DNA of 64,000 nucleotides from an uncultured Pseudomonadota bacterium (GTDB taxonomy: Bacteria > Pseudomonadota > Alphaproteobacteria > Rs-D84). The stretch is from NCBI GenBank assembly GCA_949290785.1, contig CASETE010000011.1:5893-69892 (forward strand). Reading direction: 5' to 3'. Shown piece by piece: positions 27,425-31,758 of the stretch. The notes under the pieces were generated by a model. It made no database searches. It saw only the letters and a program-made list of their open reading frames with translations, and had not been told where the DNA came from. The first letter of the stretch is position 1. Each line of letters starts with the position of its first letter. Both the position numbers and the translations under genes were made by a program.

Positions 27425-27955
27425 TTATACTTTGCGCACAGAGAATTCGCAACCGCAATAATTCTGACGATAAAAATTAGAATTTCTGCCAATTTCTTGA
27501 CGTAATTTTTCATCCCACTTGATTGGTATATAGGAAATATCTCCTAAAGAGCACTGTGCAGCACGGTCAACTTGTGATTGGTCTTTGTGTCGTGATACAC
27601 CAAATACAGATGCGACCGCGTCATATCCATTTTCTTTTGCCCAACGTCGTGCAAATTCAAATCTGAATTCAAAGCAACGACTGCAACGTGCACCTCGCTC
27701 TGGTTCGGCTTCTAAACCACGTACTGCACCGCGCCAGTCTTCGTGATTGTAATTTCCAACAGCGTATTTAACGCCCAAAGATTCGCAATATTTTATTTGC
27801 TCGTTCAGGCGTTTTGTATATTCTGCAGCGGGAAAAATGTTCGGGTTAAAGAACAACACAACAAAGTCATCAACGTCAGGTATTTCGCCGTCCGCTAATT
27901 GCTTTATTGCACCCGCACTGCAAGGTGCACAACAAGACATCAGAACCAGTTTCAT
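27425..27955 (-). CDS. queH: Epoxyqueuosine reductase QueH (DUF208)
   Basis: Conserved CCAPCS and C-terminal NYCGCEFS motifs. ATG overlaps the metG stop (ATGA), suggesting translational coupling. Confidence 0.75.
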   Translation of the reverse strand: MKLVLMSCCAPCSAGAIKQLADGEIPDVDDFVVLFFNPNIFPAAEYTKRLNEQIKYCESLGVKYAVGNYNHEDWRGAVRGLEAEPERGARCSRCFEFRFEFARRWAKENGYDAVASVFGVSRHKDQSQVDRAAQCSLGDISYIPIKWDEKLRQEIGRNSNFYRQNYCGCEFSVRKV

Positions 27956-29955
27956 TTTATTTCCCAAATACTGCCTATTTTTGCATCACTATCCAGTTCT
28001 ATTATTTCATCTGCGTTATTGCCCTGTCCCAGTTCTGCGGCACTGCACATCATACCGAAAGACTCAGTTCCTGCAATTGTGCGCTGGGATATAGGCTTTT
28101 TCATTGTCGGCAGCACGCAACCAACAGGTGCCAATATGCCAATTAACCCAACACGAACATTTGGCGCGCCACATACAATTTGTAAATTATGATTTGTACC
28201 GTCATCAACTGTTAAAAGATGCAAGTCATCACGTGATGGATGATTTTTTACTTCGATTATTTTAGCAACAACAGGTTTAACATTGTTGTCTTCTTTTTTA
28301 GCATATTTTTCAGTCAACTCTGCAACGCGCGCATCATCAATTCTGGAAAATAAGTTTTCTGGAACTGTGAAAGCTTCGCCATTTTGAATTCTGCGTTCAA
28401 ATTCTTTTGGCCAAGACAGGTCGTGCGTGTTGTTAAATACACGCTGTATTTTTTCTGCAGCATCTGGAATAAACGGTGCGGAAACGCGCGCATACAAGTC
28501 TATCAGTTGAAAGCATTCGTTTAGTACTGCACCCGCTTGCCCGGCGTTTCCATTTTTCACAAGCGCCCACGGTTCTTTAACAGTCATATATTCGTTACCA
28601 ATTGCATACAACGAACGCAACGCAACAACAGCCACACGGAATTCGCATGCGTCCAGCGCAGCAGTAAGTTCTGCAATTTTTTCGTTTACTTGCGCAGTTA
28701 AAGAAGCATCTAATTCGCCTGCATTTGGAACGGTTAGTCCAAAATTTTTATCAGTCAGTTTGCAAACGCGCGAAACAAAGTTACCCAACATACCGTTTAG
28801 GTCTTTATTGACGATGTCCGCAAAGCGCGCAAAAGTAAAGTCTGTATCGTCTGTTTCTGGTGCGGATGCAATCAGCGCATAACGCCAAGCGTCAGCAGGT
28901 GCAATGCTGACTGCTTCGTCCAAGAACACACCGCGCTTTTCAGATTTAGAAAACTTACCGCCTTCAAAATTCAGGAAGTTCATCGCTTTTAACTGGTCAA
29001 CAGTTTTCCAGTTGTCGTTCATCGCCAGTTGCTGTTCAGGGAATAAAACCGCATGGAACTTAACATTATCCTTGCCCATAAATTGTGCATAATGACAATC
29101 AGGATTTTTCCACCATGTTTCCCAGTCTTTATTTGCAGCCTGCGATATAGAAACATAACCCCAAGGTGCATCAAACCAAACATAGAAAACTTTATTTTCG
29201 TACCCTTCTTTATTTACAGGAATACCCCATGACAAATCACGTGTAATAGAATAGTCCAACAGACCGATTTTCTGCCAACCGTATGCGATACTTTTTGCAG
29301 TTTTTGACCAACCACTTGAATGAGTAGTCAACCAATCGTCCCAAAGCTTTTGCGCCTTTGATGCTAAAAAGAACAGATTTTTTGTTGGGCGTAGTTCAAT
29401 ATTACTGCTGCCAGATATTGTGCTGCGTGGGTTTAAAAGTTCTGTTGCTTCATATGTCGCACTGCACTTATCACATTGGTCGCCACGTGCCTTATCATAA
29501 CCGCACTTTGGGCAGGTTCCAACTAACTGACGGTCTGCCAAGAACATGTTATCATCAACAGAGAAAGGTTGCAGTGTTTCACGTTCTTCAATCAATCCCA
29601 GCTCATCAAGACGAGAAAATAAATCTTGGACTAATTTTTCCTGCAATTCTGTATGTGTACGTCCATAAATATCAAAAGATAAGTTAAAATTACGAACCGC
29701 ACGTAAATGTTTTTCGTAATATTTATTAGAATAATCAAAAGGCGACATATTTTCTTTCATAGCACCGACAACAACAGGTGTACCATGTTCGTCTGCCCCG
29801 CAAACATATAATACATCACGTCCGCATGCGCGACAAAAGCGGGCATATATATCCGAAGGCAACCAGCACCCGATAAGGTGCCCCAAGTGCAATTCGCCAT
29901 TAACATATGGCAATGCAGAAGTAATAAGATATTTTTGTTTATTGTCAGTTGTCAT
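27952..29955 (-). CDS. metG: Methionine--tRNA ligase with C-terminal EMAP/Trbp111-like tRNA-binding domain
   Basis: PYVNGELHLGHL (HIGH) and KFSKS (KMSKS) motifs; Zn knuckle CPKCG..CDKC. Start at MTTDNKQ (29955); the ORF-track TTG extension would run through the terminator hairpin. Confidence 0.9.
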   Translation of the reverse strand: MTTDNKQKYLITSALPYVNGELHLGHLIGCWLPSDIYARFCRACGRDVLYVCGADEHGTPVVVGAMKENMSPFDYSNKYYEKHLRAVRNFNLSFDIYGRTHTELQEKLVQDLFSRLDELGLIEERETLQPFSVDDNMFLADRQLVGTCPKCGYDKARGDQCDKCSATYEATELLNPRSTISGSSNIELRPTKNLFFLASKAQKLWDDWLTTHSSGWSKTAKSIAYGWQKIGLLDYSITRDLSWGIPVNKEGYENKVFYVWFDAPWGYVSISQAANKDWETWWKNPDCHYAQFMGKDNVKFHAVLFPEQQLAMNDNWKTVDQLKAMNFLNFEGGKFSKSEKRGVFLDEAVSIAPADAWRYALIASAPETDDTDFTFARFADIVNKDLNGMLGNFVSRVCKLTDKNFGLTVPNAGELDASLTAQVNEKIAELTAALDACEFRVAVVALRSLYAIGNEYMTVKEPWALVKNGNAGQAGAVLNECFQLIDLYARVSAPFIPDAAEKIQRVFNNTHDLSWPKEFERRIQNGEAFTVPENLFSRIDDARVAELTEKYAKKEDNNVKPVVAKIIEVKNHPSRDDLHLLTVDDGTNHNLQIVCGAPNVRVGLIGILAPVGCVLPTMKKPISQRTIAGTESFGMMCSAAELGQGNNADEIIELDSDAKIGSIWEIK

Positions 29956-30071: not shown

Positions 30072-30148
30072 TGGTGGGTGGTATTGGACTCGAACCAACG
30101 ACCTTTACGATGTCAACGTAACGCTCTAACCAACTGAGCTAACCACCC
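30072..30148 (-). tRNA. tRNA-Val (anticodon GAC)
   Basis: GGGTGGTTAGCTCAGTTGGTTAGAGCGTTACGTTGACATCGTAAAGGTCGTTGGTTCGAGTCCAATACCACCCACCA; perfect 7 bp acceptor stem; encoded CCA. Confidence 0.85.
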
Positions 30149-30162
30149 GATATTTTTCGGTG

Positions 30163-30237
30163 CTATGTCCAGAAAGCCAACGACCTTTACGATGTCAACG
30201 TACGCGGCTGACCAACTGAGCTAACCACCCGATAGAC
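30163..30237 (-). pseudogene. Truncated/degenerate duplicate of tRNA-Val(GAC): 5' acceptor strand, mutated D arm, anticodon arm, variable loop; no T arm or 3' acceptor
   Basis: About 52 nt nearly identical to positions 1-52 of the adjacent tRNA (..CCAACGACCTTTACGATGTCAACGTA..CCAACTGAGCTAACCACCCGA) with the D stem disrupted (CGCGGCTGACC for ACGCTCTAACC). Confidence 0.6.
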
Positions 30238-30308
30238 TTTAAACTTTCAGGATTATACCAAAGAAAAATACGATTGCAATATCAAAAAGCAGCATTTATA
30301 ATATATAC

Positions 30309-30483
30309 CGCAACAGGTGTTCTGTTGTTGGGCTTACAAACCCATTCAATCAGCGTCAGCGATGGCGAAAAATATCTCCAACTAATTGGTTGGAGTGGTC
30401 TGAATATATTGAATAAGACCGCAATTTCTGATTGAATTGTTTGTAAACTCCAACCACCTGAATTTTCCGGTGGTTTTTTGTTT
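30309..30483 (+). ncRNA. Structured sRNA, copy 1 (~175 nt), with own promoter TTGCAA-17-TATAAT (30274-30302) and terminator AACCACC-N10-GGTGGTT-T6
   Basis: Predicted helices: CAACAG/CUGUUG 5' hairpin; long-range UUACAAAC/GUUUGUAA; AUUCAAUCAG/CUGAUUGAAU; CUCCAAC-UAAUU-GGUUGGAG hairpin; GGUCU-(GAAUAUAUUGAAUAA)-AGACC hairpin; terminator. Confidence 0.5.
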
Positions 30484-30552
30484 AACGCAAGGGAGTAAAA
30501 AGCGCCAGAAAAAATAATTTGATATGTGATTTATGGGTGGTTATAATACATA

Positions 30553-30722
30553 CCGCAACAGGTGTTCTGTTGTTGGGCTTACAAACCTAGTGAACGCGCT
30601 TGGTTATCAGGCGAAAATCCAACCAATTGGTTGGAGTGTGCCGAATATATTGAATAAGGCACGCAATTCGTTCAATTGTTTGTAAACTCCAACCACCTGA
30701 ATTTTCCGGTGGTTTTTTGTTT
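30553..30722 (+). ncRNA. Structured sRNA, copy 2, promoter TTGATA-17-TATAAT (30519-30547), same terminator
   Basis: Same architecture as copy 1. The loop-closing stem changes GGUCU/AGACC to GUGCC/GGCAC (compensatory) with the identical loop GAAUAUAUUGAAUAA. Confidence 0.5.
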
Positions 30723-30791
30723 AACGTAAAGGAGTAAAAAGCACCAGAAAAAATAATTTGATATATGGTTTATGGGTGGATATAATATGTA

Positions 30792-30966
30792 CTGCAACAG
30801 GTGTTCTGTTGCTGGGATTCACAACCTATTGTCAAGCGTCCGCAGGGACGAAAAAAACTCCAACCCCTGGTTGGAGGGACTTTAAATATATTGAATAAAA
30901 GTCGCAATTCTTGACAATTGTTGTGAACCTCCAACCACCTGAAATTTCTGGTGGTTTTATTTTTGA
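30792..30966 (+). ncRNA. Structured sRNA, copy 3, promoter TTGATA-17-TATAAT (30758-30786), terminator CCACC-UGAAAUUUC-UGGUGG-U4AU5
   Basis: Long-range helix changes UUACAAAC/GUUUGUAA to UUCACAAC/GUUGUGAA (three compensatory pairs). Inner helix changes to UAUUGUCAAG/CUUGACAAU. Loop stem becomes GACUU/AAGUC. Confidence 0.5.
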
Positions 30967-30980
30967 ATATCGGGGGTAAA

Positions 30981-31169
30981 ATGACACTGGGTAATGAAAT
31001 AGAACAAATCCGACAAAAATGTAATATGCCGTTATTTATTGCATATTCTATATTTGATACCGATGAAAAAGGTTATCATCAAATTGTGATTGGTCGACAA
31101 AAACCCACAGTTTTTCAATTAATAATGTTTATTGATTCCACCCACCACCCAATGAAGTGTATAGAATAA
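30981..31169 (+). CDS. Small XRE/Cro-like helix-turn-helix protein (62 aa), tentative
   Basis: ATG 9 nt after RBS GGGGGTAAA, directly after the copy-3 terminator. LGNEIEQIRQKCNM...YHQIVIGRQKPTVFQLIMFIDS loosely fits the HTH_3 pattern (LG.rIr.lR...G...IS.IE.G.r.P....L.kIa.aL). Confidence 0.35.
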   Translation: MTLGNEIEQIRQKCNMPLFIAYSIFDTDEKGYHQIVIGRQKPTVFQLIMFIDSTHHPMKCIE

Positions 31170-31212
31170 AAACAGTTGTTATACACATACTATATTTTAT
31201 AATATTTAATAC

Positions 31213-31533
31213 ATGAAAGAATACAACTTTTGGGTATATATATTATTTAATGATCGTGCCAAGGCAACATATATCGGGGTTACAAATAATTTAGAACGCA
31301 GAATAATTGAACATAAAATGGGACTGGTACCTGGGTACACCAAACAGCACAATATTGACAAACTGGCTTACTTTGAACATTATCAATATATACACGATGC
31401 AATTGCACGCGAAAAGGCATTAAAAAAATGGAATCGTGCGTGGAAGTATAGATTAATAGAAACAATGAATCCTGAATGGAATGATTTGGCTGTTGGTTTG
31501 ACAGAATATATAAAAAATATGGTAAAAATTTAA
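31213..31533 (+). CDS. GIY-YIG nuclease superfamily protein (YhbQ/UPF0213-like stand-alone domain)
   Basis: YNFWVYILFNDRAKATYIGVTNNLERRIIEHK ... REKALKKWNRAWKYRLIETMNPEWNDL matches the GIY-YIG core and the C-terminal KKW.R.WK..LI...NP.W.DL signature; 106 aa. Confidence 0.7.
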   Translation: MKEYNFWVYILFNDRAKATYIGVTNNLERRIIEHKMGLVPGYTKQHNIDKLAYFEHYQYIHDAIAREKALKKWNRAWKYRLIETMNPEWNDLAVGLTEYIKNMVKI

Positions 31534-31623
31534 ACATTGTTTTTCTAATATATTATCTTATTTGTCATTCCCGCGTCCGTGGGTCAAAAAACTAATGTTT
31601 TTATTGGGTGATAATGCGTGTTT

Positions 31624-31758
31624 TGTCATTCCCGCGCAGGCGGGAATATGGTCTATTAAATTTATATCGCAGATTTCAGATTAATGAAAAAAACATAGAT
31701 ATATATAATTAATTAAATAATTATTTTAGTCCCTATTCCCGCCTGCGCGGGAATGACA
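31624..31758. mobile_element. MITE-like element, 135 bp, with perfect 24 bp terminal inverted repeats TGTCATTCCCGCGCAGGCGGGAAT (each containing ATTCCC-N8-GGGAAT) flanking an 87 bp AT-rich core; a third degenerate half-site at 31562-31586
   Basis: Left repeat 31624-31647 is the exact reverse complement of right repeat 31735-31758. GC-rich palindromic ends in an AT-rich intergenic region between the GIY-YIG gene and mreB. Confidence 0.5.

Follow-up and report, generated by a model that had tools for sequence, protein, structure and literature searches.

The 64,000-nt stretch of DNA analysed here, referred to as the window, belongs to an uncultured alphaproteobacterium of the order Rs-D84 (assembly GCA_949290785.1, contig CASETE010000011.1). 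Its region 30270-31169 is occupied by three units of about 240 bp in a head-to-tail array (30274-30963), followed by an open reading frame (ORF) encoding 62 amino acids (aa). The upstream flank consists of metG (minus strand), a tRNA-Val(GAC) gene and a partial, 58-nt copy of the latter, and the downstream flank, beyond the ORF, is a GIY-YIG gene. Tandem Repeats Finder reports the array as a repeat at 30296-30958 with a period of 239, 2.7 copies and 80% matches. In each unit a near-consensus sigma-70-type promoter leads to an RNA of about 170 nt and an intrinsic terminator, as predicted from the sequence (Table 1). These elements had been proposed in an earlier note on this DNA, and the tandem units, promoters and terminators were found as described there by Tandem Repeats Finder, a consensus scan and RNA folding. 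The same note regarded the units as three small RNA (sRNA) genes. The structured nature of the RNAs was upheld, but the free-standing label suits them less well than that of a promoter-proximal leader or attenuator placed before many different genes.

Table 1. Positions of the predicted features of the RNA array and its surroundings in the window; bit scores refer to the covariance model R1.
Feature	Position	Strand	Description
Unit 1 promoter	30274-30302	+	TTGCAA, 17-nt spacer, TATAAT; 10/12 matches in the consensus scan
Unit 2 promoter	30519-30547	+	TTGATA, 17-nt spacer, TATAAT; 11/12 matches in the consensus scan
Unit 3 promoter	30758-30786	+	TTGATA, 17-nt spacer, TATAAT; 11/12 matches in the consensus scan
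Unit 1 RNA	30309-30480	+	about 172 nt; -63.1 kcal/mol, z -6.15; 190 bits
Unit 2 RNA	30554-30720	+	about 167 nt; -64.7 kcal/mol, z -6.29; 168 bits
Unit 3 RNA	about 30793-30964	+	about 171 nt; -68.4 kcal/mol, z -7.84; 175 bits
Unit 1 H2 hairpin	30376-30395	+	CUCCAACU, loop AAUU, GGUUGGAG; proposed anti-antiterminator
Unit 2 H2 equivalent	about 30618-30636	+	
Unit 3 H2 equivalent	about 30858-30876	+	
Unit 1 helix b	30421-30426 / 30435-30440	+	GCAAUU/AAUUGU; encloses the P3 3' strand
Unit 3 helix b	30904-30909 / 30916-30921	+	
Unit 1 pre-terminator repeat	30448-30455	+	CUCCAACC
Unit 2 pre-terminator repeat	30687-30694	+	CUCCAACC
Unit 3 pre-terminator repeat	30929-30936	+	CUCCAACC
Unit 1 terminator	30452-30480	+	AACCACC, 10-nt loop, GGUGGUU, U6; seen in folds
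Unit 2 terminator	30691-30719	+	7-bp stem AACCACC/GGUGGUU, then U6
Unit 3 terminator	30933-30964	+	AACCACC/GGUGGUU, interrupted U-tract UUUUAUUUUU (U4AU5); ORF directly 3'
Spacer, units 1-2	30481-30518	+	holds AAGGGAGTAAAAAG
Spacer, units 2-3	30721-30757	+	
Ribosome-binding site	30972-30976	+	GGGGG, from sequence
62-aa ORF	30981-31169	+	tblastn relatives after the last unit; probably a minimal divergent XRE-type helix-turn-helix protein
queH	27425-27967		beside metG; 180 aa
tRNA-Val(GAC)	30072-30148	-	
Partial tRNA-Val(GAC) copy	30177-30234	-	58 nt, 90% identical
Terminator-like elements	30376-30395, 30858-30876	-	complement of the H2 palindrome and A-rich junction
Palindromic element	31552-31758		three copies, both orientations

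A GC-rich stem-loop with an adjoining U-tract, the hallmark of intrinsic (Rho-independent) termination, is present in all three units. A simple terminator scan overlooked these stem-loops owing to their 10-nt loop, and they are seen in the folds. The 18-mer GCAACAGGTGTTCTGTTG is invariant among the units and occurs three times, against 0.04 occurrences expected by chance. The scan of the 64-kb window with R1 revealed no copy beyond the three units. The 5' end of the RNA (unit 1) is a prediction based on the position of the -10 box.

The three RNAs share one minimum-free-energy (MFE) architecture, which comprises the 5' hairpin P1, the sequence UGGG, the long-range helix P2 followed by P3, hairpins H1-H3 and the terminator. 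Folding of each copy, which the earlier note had advised, returned this shared architecture with strongly negative z scores; the energies lie between -63 and -68 kcal/mol, and 0 of 200 shuffles were equally stable. Hairpin H3 of the window units bears an invariant 14-nt loop (AAUAUAUUGAAUAA). Every compensatory substitution listed in the earlier note is present in the sequence: the long-range helix changes from UUACAAAC/GUUUGUAA to UUCACAAC/GUUGUGAA, the inner helix from AUUCAAUCAG/CUGAUUGAAU to UUGUCAAG/CUUGACAA, and the loop-closing stem from GGUCU/AGACC to GUGCC/GGCAC and then to GACUU/AAGUC.

Searches of related genomes and metagenomes extended these observations to more than 100 homologues in Candidatus Enterousia, which falls in the uncultured order Rs-D84, and in related gut and rumen Alphaproteobacteria. 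The helices of these homologues are kept by compensatory changes, so the view that the units encode a functional structured RNA and not a plain repeat has been borne out. Three sources of homologues were used. Exact-protein look-ups yielded 12 syntenic metagenome loci of the window species (L001-L012), in which the GIY-YIG protein is 100% identical in 12 of 12 cases and the spacer from metG to the GIY-YIG gene holds 1 to 4 RNA units. A scan of one genome per species with a pattern of two conserved loops (the genome set) gave 26 loci in about 22 metagenome-assembled genomes, labelled as Candidatus Enterousia or as uncultured Alphaproteobacteria, Rickettsiales or Rhodospirillales, from chicken, ruminant, roe-deer and human guts; the longest arrays, with 4-5 units, are in L016 (up to 5) and L019. 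The second, independent scan (the metagenome set) used H2 plus the pre-terminator repeat as its pattern, and among the matches listed R1 found at least 77 full-length ones with scores of 31-151 bits. Every expected match in the genome set was retrieved by R1 as well. The Methanosalsum locus L026 was rejected as a chance pattern match, which R1 did not recover.

In the model-fitted alignment of the metagenome set, 89.3% of cells are paired, against 35-46% in slid controls, and double changes occur at 45 of 52 pairs; the corresponding values for the genome set are 93.7%, 33-47% and 40 of 52, and 0 of 500 shuffles matched either set. These alignments are biased towards the R1 model, but the slid controls were drawn from the very same alignments. 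The plain MAFFT alignment, moreover, shows compensatory changes in 20 of 30 RNAalifold pairs. The terminator stem also covaries (helices 9-11 in the metagenome set and helix 9 in the genome set), and the RNA can be assigned to the plus strand because G-U pairs are frequent in both sets. When 36 diverse homologues were folded singly, about 30 recovered the MFE architecture of the window units. Those lacking the full architecture are mostly units whose two P2 strands stem from different unit types, and these are recombinants or metagenome assembly chimeras. The H3 loop core GAAUA..GAAUAA is conserved in the independent set, where the space between its two GAAUA motifs can take up an inserted hairpin. 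The P1 loop, in contrast, varies in the independent set, and its apparent invariance was dismissed as an artefact of the pattern used for the first homologue set. Pairing of P1 CAGGUG with terminator CACCUG was seen in truncated folds but, judged by eye, is not kept across homologues and was discarded.

At gathering thresholds, Rfam 15 recognised only tRNAs in the window and the 12 related loci, and a permissive scan of 30150-31250 gave noise, the best match being SgrS, whose 17 bits fall short of the gathering score of 37. The RNA of about 170 nt is thus a family absent from Rfam, new and previously unrecorded.

Conservation extends to the elements that would start and stop transcription. In 85 of the 109 homologues listed, a promoter of the form TTGnnn, 16-18 nt, TAnnnT has its end at a distance of 3-12 nt (typically 5-8 nt) from P1, on the 5' side, and the 3' end of the homologues is a GC-rich stem with a U-tract. 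In related genomes the first or sole unit is preceded by a promoter of the TTGCAA type, like that of unit 1. Independent transcription of the units, as the earlier note put it, agrees with the promoter and terminator predicted for each unit and with this recurrence of the promoter, and it stands as a prediction. A conserved, covarying structured domain hence opens a transcription unit, as is the case for riboswitches.

At loci with enough downstream sequence, an ORF on the same strand usually begins about 10-60 nt past the terminator. Among 81 downstream ORFs searched against Pfam, 10 carry Listeria-Bacteroides (Flg_new) surface repeats, and helix-turn-helix matches amount to 9 with HTH_31 and 3 with HTH_3 (the overlap between these two sets is unchecked). 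One outer-membrane beta-barrel and many other proteins with signal peptides were also found, so that the downstream genes are heterogeneous, encoding mostly secreted or surface proteins and small regulators. Multiple copies inside one assembly sit before different genes, which is what a cis-regulatory leader common to several genes would look like. Short secreted proteins downstream of the RNA in L020, L022, L056, L072, L078 and L097 have motifs in common, for instance (T/S)xYVD...ANQTMAGTY or IASTAYVKGAYND; these motifs recall the head repeats of fibres or adhesins and are not recognised by Pfam.

In the window, the ORF and its ribosome-binding site lie right behind the third terminator, as had been noted before. 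The distance from this terminator to the ATG is 16 nt, which is too short for a promoter, and the consensus scan detected no additional promoter-like site on the plus strand inside the units. The 62-aa ORF would therefore be expressed by terminator read-through. The coupling between RNA and gene that the earlier note envisaged is supported by this anatomy, that is, by the lack of room for a promoter and by the recurrence of the RNA-then-gene order across species. Relatives of the ORF were found by tblastn at 22 other loci with 41-100% identity, each just past the last unit, and those in other species retain this position at 41-46% identity. Judged by this conservation in a fixed position, the ORF is a real gene. 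Only 7 close relatives of its product occur among 5.8 billion proteins, and none carries a name.

The description of the ORF as XRE-like fared less well than its status as a conserved gene. Pfam and NCBIfam give no match for the window protein, and the matches of its relatives are marginal (one with HTH_31, E 0.032; two with an MqsA-type helix-turn-helix model, E 0.045). A profile-profile comparison with Pfam-positive XRE neighbours placed it in the helix-turn-helix register (E 5.9e-4, probability 29%), and its best match in the PDB covers residues 10-58 of 5v5t_A (E 0.086). The AlphaFold model, derived from an 8-sequence alignment, had a pLDDT of 52.7, too poor for use. The XRE identity is hence weakly supported. 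In the three-unit alignment (columns 226-245), AAGGGAGTAAAAAG in the two spacers between the units aligns with GGGGGTAAAATG, which comprises the ribosome-binding site and start of the ORF. As far as this alignment indicates, the spacers may preserve the remnant of an RNA-plus-gene module that was duplicated and later lost its gene.

The strands around hairpin H2 point to how such a leader could act. H2 is the sole helix that hardly drifts across the family, in both alignment sets. The pre-terminator repeat CUCCAACC repeats the 5' arm of H2, complements its 3' arm GGUUGGAG and overlaps the 5' arm of the terminator by AACC. Pairing between the H2 3' arm and the pre-terminator repeat holds in 98.9% of cells, and the near-invariance of H2 is as expected if three strands must remain compatible. 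In three lineages H2 has changed, and the pre-terminator repeat has changed with it. The H2 5' arm, H2 3' arm and pre-terminator read CUCCUUC, GAGGGAG and CUCCCUC in L033/L035; CUCCUGA, GUCAGGAG and CUCCUGAC in the second copy of L042; and CUCUAAC, GGUUGGGG and CCCAACC in L095. At least 7 bp are kept in these lineages, and the alternative duplex is at least as strong as H2. Helix b (RCAAUU/AAUUGU) represents a second conserved alternative pairing: 90.2% of cells pair, compared with 20-48% in slid controls, and one base pair alternates, being AU in 53 sequences and UA in 21. When the pairing of the H2 3' arm with the pre-terminator was forced in the window units, the resulting folds lay 17-21 kcal/mol above the MFE, and hairpin b appeared unprompted beside H3. 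In these models, the two pairings describe a coherent alternative conformer that would block the terminator.

On this basis, each unit is considered, with moderate confidence, to be a Brt-like promoter-proximal structured leader whose intrinsic terminator attenuates the adjoining gene and, in doing so, also releases an abundant short RNA. According to the folding results, the nascent RNA would by default form P1 and the junction closed by P2 and P3, with GGUUGGAG sequestered in H2; the terminator would then form and the RNA of about 170 nt be released. In the switched state, GGUUGGAG would pair with CUCCAACC, the 3' strands released from P3 and P2 would fold into hairpin b, and in the absence of a terminator the RNA polymerase would read into the downstream gene. 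The antiterminated state is the less stable one, so the switch would require a driving influence, whether a ligand, a protein, a second RNA or the kinetics of folding. In the window, unit 3 alone would gate a gene, the 62-aa ORF for a probable mini-XRE regulator. Units 1 and 2 would be orphan RNA-only copies, presumably raising the amount of an RNA that acts in trans or titrates a factor, a role already proposed for Brt1.

Several points weigh against this attenuator model. The antiterminated fold is disfavoured by the 17-21 kcal/mol given above and still by 13-15 kcal/mol before the 3' arm of the terminator is made. The covariation of the antiterminator comes from three lineages, all three strands being invariant elsewhere, and strand invariance could also be explained by sequence-specific recognition by a protein. 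Helix b might instead belong to a single fold as a pseudoknot. A purely cis-acting role leaves units 1 and 2 unexplained, together with gene-less arrays of up to 5 units such as that in L016. The RNA ends and read-through are predictions. Assembling tandem repeats from metagenomes can also yield chimeras, and in some units the P2 strands are mismatched.

The orphan copies are also what speaks for a different explanation, in which the units are free-standing genes of trans-acting sibling sRNAs with constitutive terminators, which would pair with mRNAs via seeds, for instance the C/U-rich CUCCAACC or the conserved H3 loop, while the downstream gene is expressed by incidental leakage alone. Units without a gene behind them and copy numbers from 1 to 5 fit a dosage effect, every unit has a strong promoter and a terminator of its own, and Brt1 is likewise suspected of acting in trans. 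CUCCAACC moreover resembles the anti-Shine-Dalgarno seeds found in sRNAs of Alphaproteobacteria. However, the fixed orientation and the 10-60-nt spacing to the downstream gene at most loci would be unexpected for independent genes, and the downstream ORF lacks a separate promoter. The predicted fold also pairs most of CUCCAACC, both to the 5' GGG and within the terminator. As for a trans target in the window, the sole further GGTTGGAG in the 64 kb lies within a long coding region, away from a ribosome-binding site, and was rejected. This explanation therefore appears rather unlikely.

It is quite improbable that the RNA serves chiefly as a protein-binding scaffold or decoy, titrating a regulator, for instance a global RNA-binding protein or the small helix-turn-helix protein encoded next to it. 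H2, the GAAUA..GAAUAA motif in H3 and the A-rich junction would then be sites of protein recognition and not strands of a switch, which would suit the sequence conservation of H2, the H3 loop core and the junction residues while all other helices drift; many copies per genome and the tandem arrays are also in line with titration. No RNA-binding protein is consistently encoded nearby, however, the downstream genes being heterogeneous, and the co-change of the pre-terminator with H2, by which pairing is kept, points to RNA-RNA pairing over a fixed protein site. Finally, a tandem DNA repeat without function, or a mobile-element remnant, might be suggested by the adjoining tRNA-Val with its 58-nt partial duplicate, by the GIY-YIG gene that follows and by the variation among strains in copy number and in the order of unit types. 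This explanation is excluded by the massive compensatory covariation across more than 100 homologues in many species, and is further contradicted by the conserved promoter and terminator, by single-copy versions at unrelated loci before different genes, and by the failure of the units to match any Rfam, tRNA or rRNA family.

The attenuator model gains from the comparison with the Brt RNAs of Bartonella, a parallel that the earlier note had already drawn. In B. henselae, nine structured Brt RNAs of 194-203 nt each lie 10-18 nt before a promoterless XRE gene, trp (PMC5387305). The Brt family is described as specific to the genus Bartonella and is defined by nucleotide similarity (Tu et al. 2016, PMC5387305). 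Deletion of the 3' stem-loop of Brt1 de-represses trp1 (PMC8070961; PMC5387305), and a response to heme as well as a trans role have been suggested for Brt1 (PMC8070961). For the comparison, Brt copies were located on five Bartonella plasmids via a primer from the supplement of the paper and were read on the strand of the adjacent helix-turn-helix gene.

The layout is shared. In both cases a multicopy structured RNA of 165-205 nt with its own promoter and a 3' stem-loop precedes a small gene that lacks one, and the Brt arrangement of a promoter-driven structured RNA whose 3' stem-loop lies 10-18 nt before a promoterless XRE-type gene has its counterpart here in unit 3 and the probable XRE-type ORF behind it, with the qualification that units 1 and 2 and most members of the family have no XRE gene behind them. 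The secondary-structure architecture also agrees: a 5' hairpin is followed by GGG-A, P2 (7 bp), (G)CC and P3 (about 8 bp), P2 and P3 jointly closing a multi-hairpin junction, and 4 of the 5 Brt copies give this architecture as their MFE fold. Both long-range helices of Brt show compensatory sets, namely UUAAAAG/CUUUUAA, AAUAAAG/CUUUAUU and AGUAAAG/CUUUACU for P2, and AAUUAUAG/CUAUAAUU, AAUUCUAG/CUAGAAUU and AGUUCGAG/CUCGAACU for P3. Brt has an H2-like hairpin with the general pattern CUYC....GGAG (UUCCCGG/CCGGGAG). Its 5' arm recurs as AACUCC... (AACUCCCGGAA) shortly before the 3' hairpin, and its 3' arm can therefore pair with either copy. The helix GCUGA/UCAGU of Brt flanks the 3' strand of P3 at the position held here by RCAAUU/AAUUGU. 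In addition, the gene behind the family member in L030 encodes a protein that shares 48% identity, across 67 residues, with a Trp-like regulator from a Bartonella plasmid.

The differences are equally clear. The nucleotide similarity by which Brt is defined is lacking in the present family, and no similarity was detectable by sequence or by covariance model. With its filters off, R1 gave at most 10.3 bits (E 0.04-10), in wrong places or on the wrong strand, at three Brt-bearing plasmid loci; this comparison was made with R1, and Rfam contains no Brt model. No U-tract follows the 3' hairpin of Brt, in contrast to the canonical intrinsic terminators of this family, and H3 with its GAAUA..GAAUAA loop is a feature of this family and not of Brt. 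The family mostly precedes genes for secreted or surface proteins, Brt precedes XRE genes; the family forms tandem RNA-only arrays, and its host is the uncultured Rs-D84 and not Bartonella. The Brt parallel thus holds for layout and architecture and fails for sequence and covariance-model similarity. The family probably works like Brt and is probably its distant relative.

Some observations concern Brt itself. An apparent resemblance of the Brt1 'antisense probe' to the H3 loop (GAAUAA) proved spurious once the strands of the plasmid loci had been analysed, for the probe sequences in Table S6 of the Brt paper appear opposite in sense to their stated use. Modules of a Brt-like RNA and a trp-like XRE gene are present on mobilizable or conjugative Bartonella plasmids, beside parA (L159-L163), and Brt/Trp modules can therefore spread horizontally. 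Rhizobium plasmids sharing 19 nt of the Brt 3' hairpin were set aside: in the one inspected, the sequence follows a BON-domain gene, has no adjacent XRE gene and looks like an ordinary terminator.

In attenuators of the trp-leader type and in riboswitch platforms, segments of the leader pair in the mutually exclusive combinations 1:2, 2:3 and 3:4. The present family would resemble them in having three successive segments with potentially exclusive pairings, downstream of a large conserved structured domain, where the H2 5' arm would correspond to the anti-antiterminator, the H2 3' arm to the antiterminator and CUCCAACC-ACC to the 5' arm of the terminator. It differs from classical attenuators in lacking a leader peptide and any T-box or known aptamer signature, and it matches nothing in Rfam; moreover, the downstream genes form no metabolic pathway, and the antiterminated state is strongly disfavoured energetically. 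AbcR1 and AbcR2 of Alphaproteobacteria are sRNAs of about 100 nt with simple hairpins and exposed seeds, and they are represented in Rfam. Like the units studied here, their genes lie head to tail, have a promoter and a terminator apiece and contain C/U-rich motifs; unlike these units, which match no Rfam family, they have no promoterless gene systematically behind them. SreA and SreB of Listeria, trans-acting RNAs of riboswitch or attenuator origin, have been cited as a parallel for Brt (PMC5387305). The likeness to the present family lies in a terminated leader that would accumulate as a small RNA, possibly acting in trans, which would explain the orphan tandem copies, whereas no ligand or target is known for this family.

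The array varies among strains of the window species. In L001-L012 the strains differ in the number of units (1-4) and in which unit type sits first, in the middle or last, while the first unit keeps the TTGCAA promoter and the last keeps the UUUUAUUUUU terminator and the ORF. This variation reflects either rapid recombination within the array or chimeras of metagenome assembly, and copy numbers and some chimeric units in assemblies of such a tandem repeat may be assembly errors. On the minus strand, the H2 palindrome of units 1 and 3, together with the complement of the A-rich junction, resembles an intrinsic terminator (CTCCAACC..GGTTGGAG, TTTTTTT), which could stop antisense transcription arriving from the GIY-YIG/mreB side. 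The partial tRNA-Val copy, located between the tRNA and RNA unit 1 and given as 82 nt beyond the tRNA, corresponds to two-thirds of the tRNA, counted from its 5' end, together with 4 flanking nt; a duplication or integration event could have left it behind. A short palindrome (TGTCATTCCCGCG...GCGGGAAT) occurs three times in the interval from the GIY-YIG gene to mreB; one 42-nt inverted pair is 86% complementary, and the element resembles a small dispersed intergenic repeat. The queH product, of similar length in the window and in L006-L008 (171-176 aa), reaches 357-362 aa in L001, L003-L005 and L009, where it carries an extra DUF559/MTES_1575 domain.

Summing up, a wider and more tentative interpretation is possible, in which the RNAs would represent the founding, sequence-diverse branch of a 'Brt superfamily'. 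The RNA would then belong to a new class of effector-responsive, riboswitch-like attenuators and be used, in partner-dependent gut Alphaproteobacteria with reduced genomes, as a common switch for genes of surface proteins or adhesins and of mini-regulators, with RNA-only tandem copies acting in trans as regulators or decoys and with the same kind of signal as in Brt. The more than 100 diverse sequences with excellent covariation are ready for an Rfam entry, for structure probing and for a search for the effector. Genomes of Candidatus Enterousia / Rs-D84 are about 0.75-1.0 Mb in size with about 90% coding density (PMC12306168), and the retention in a genome of 0.75-1.0 Mb of strongly promoted arrays before surface-protein and regulator genes points to a central regulatory device for surface presentation to the host or partner. 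The three-way complementarity and helix b provide a concrete switch model that is transferable to Brt1 and to the regulation of the Bartonella adhesin gene badA. The Brt/Trp design, whose mechanism is unsettled, had been regarded as confined to Bartonella; the present family indicates that it is probably old and widely distributed among Alphaproteobacteria.

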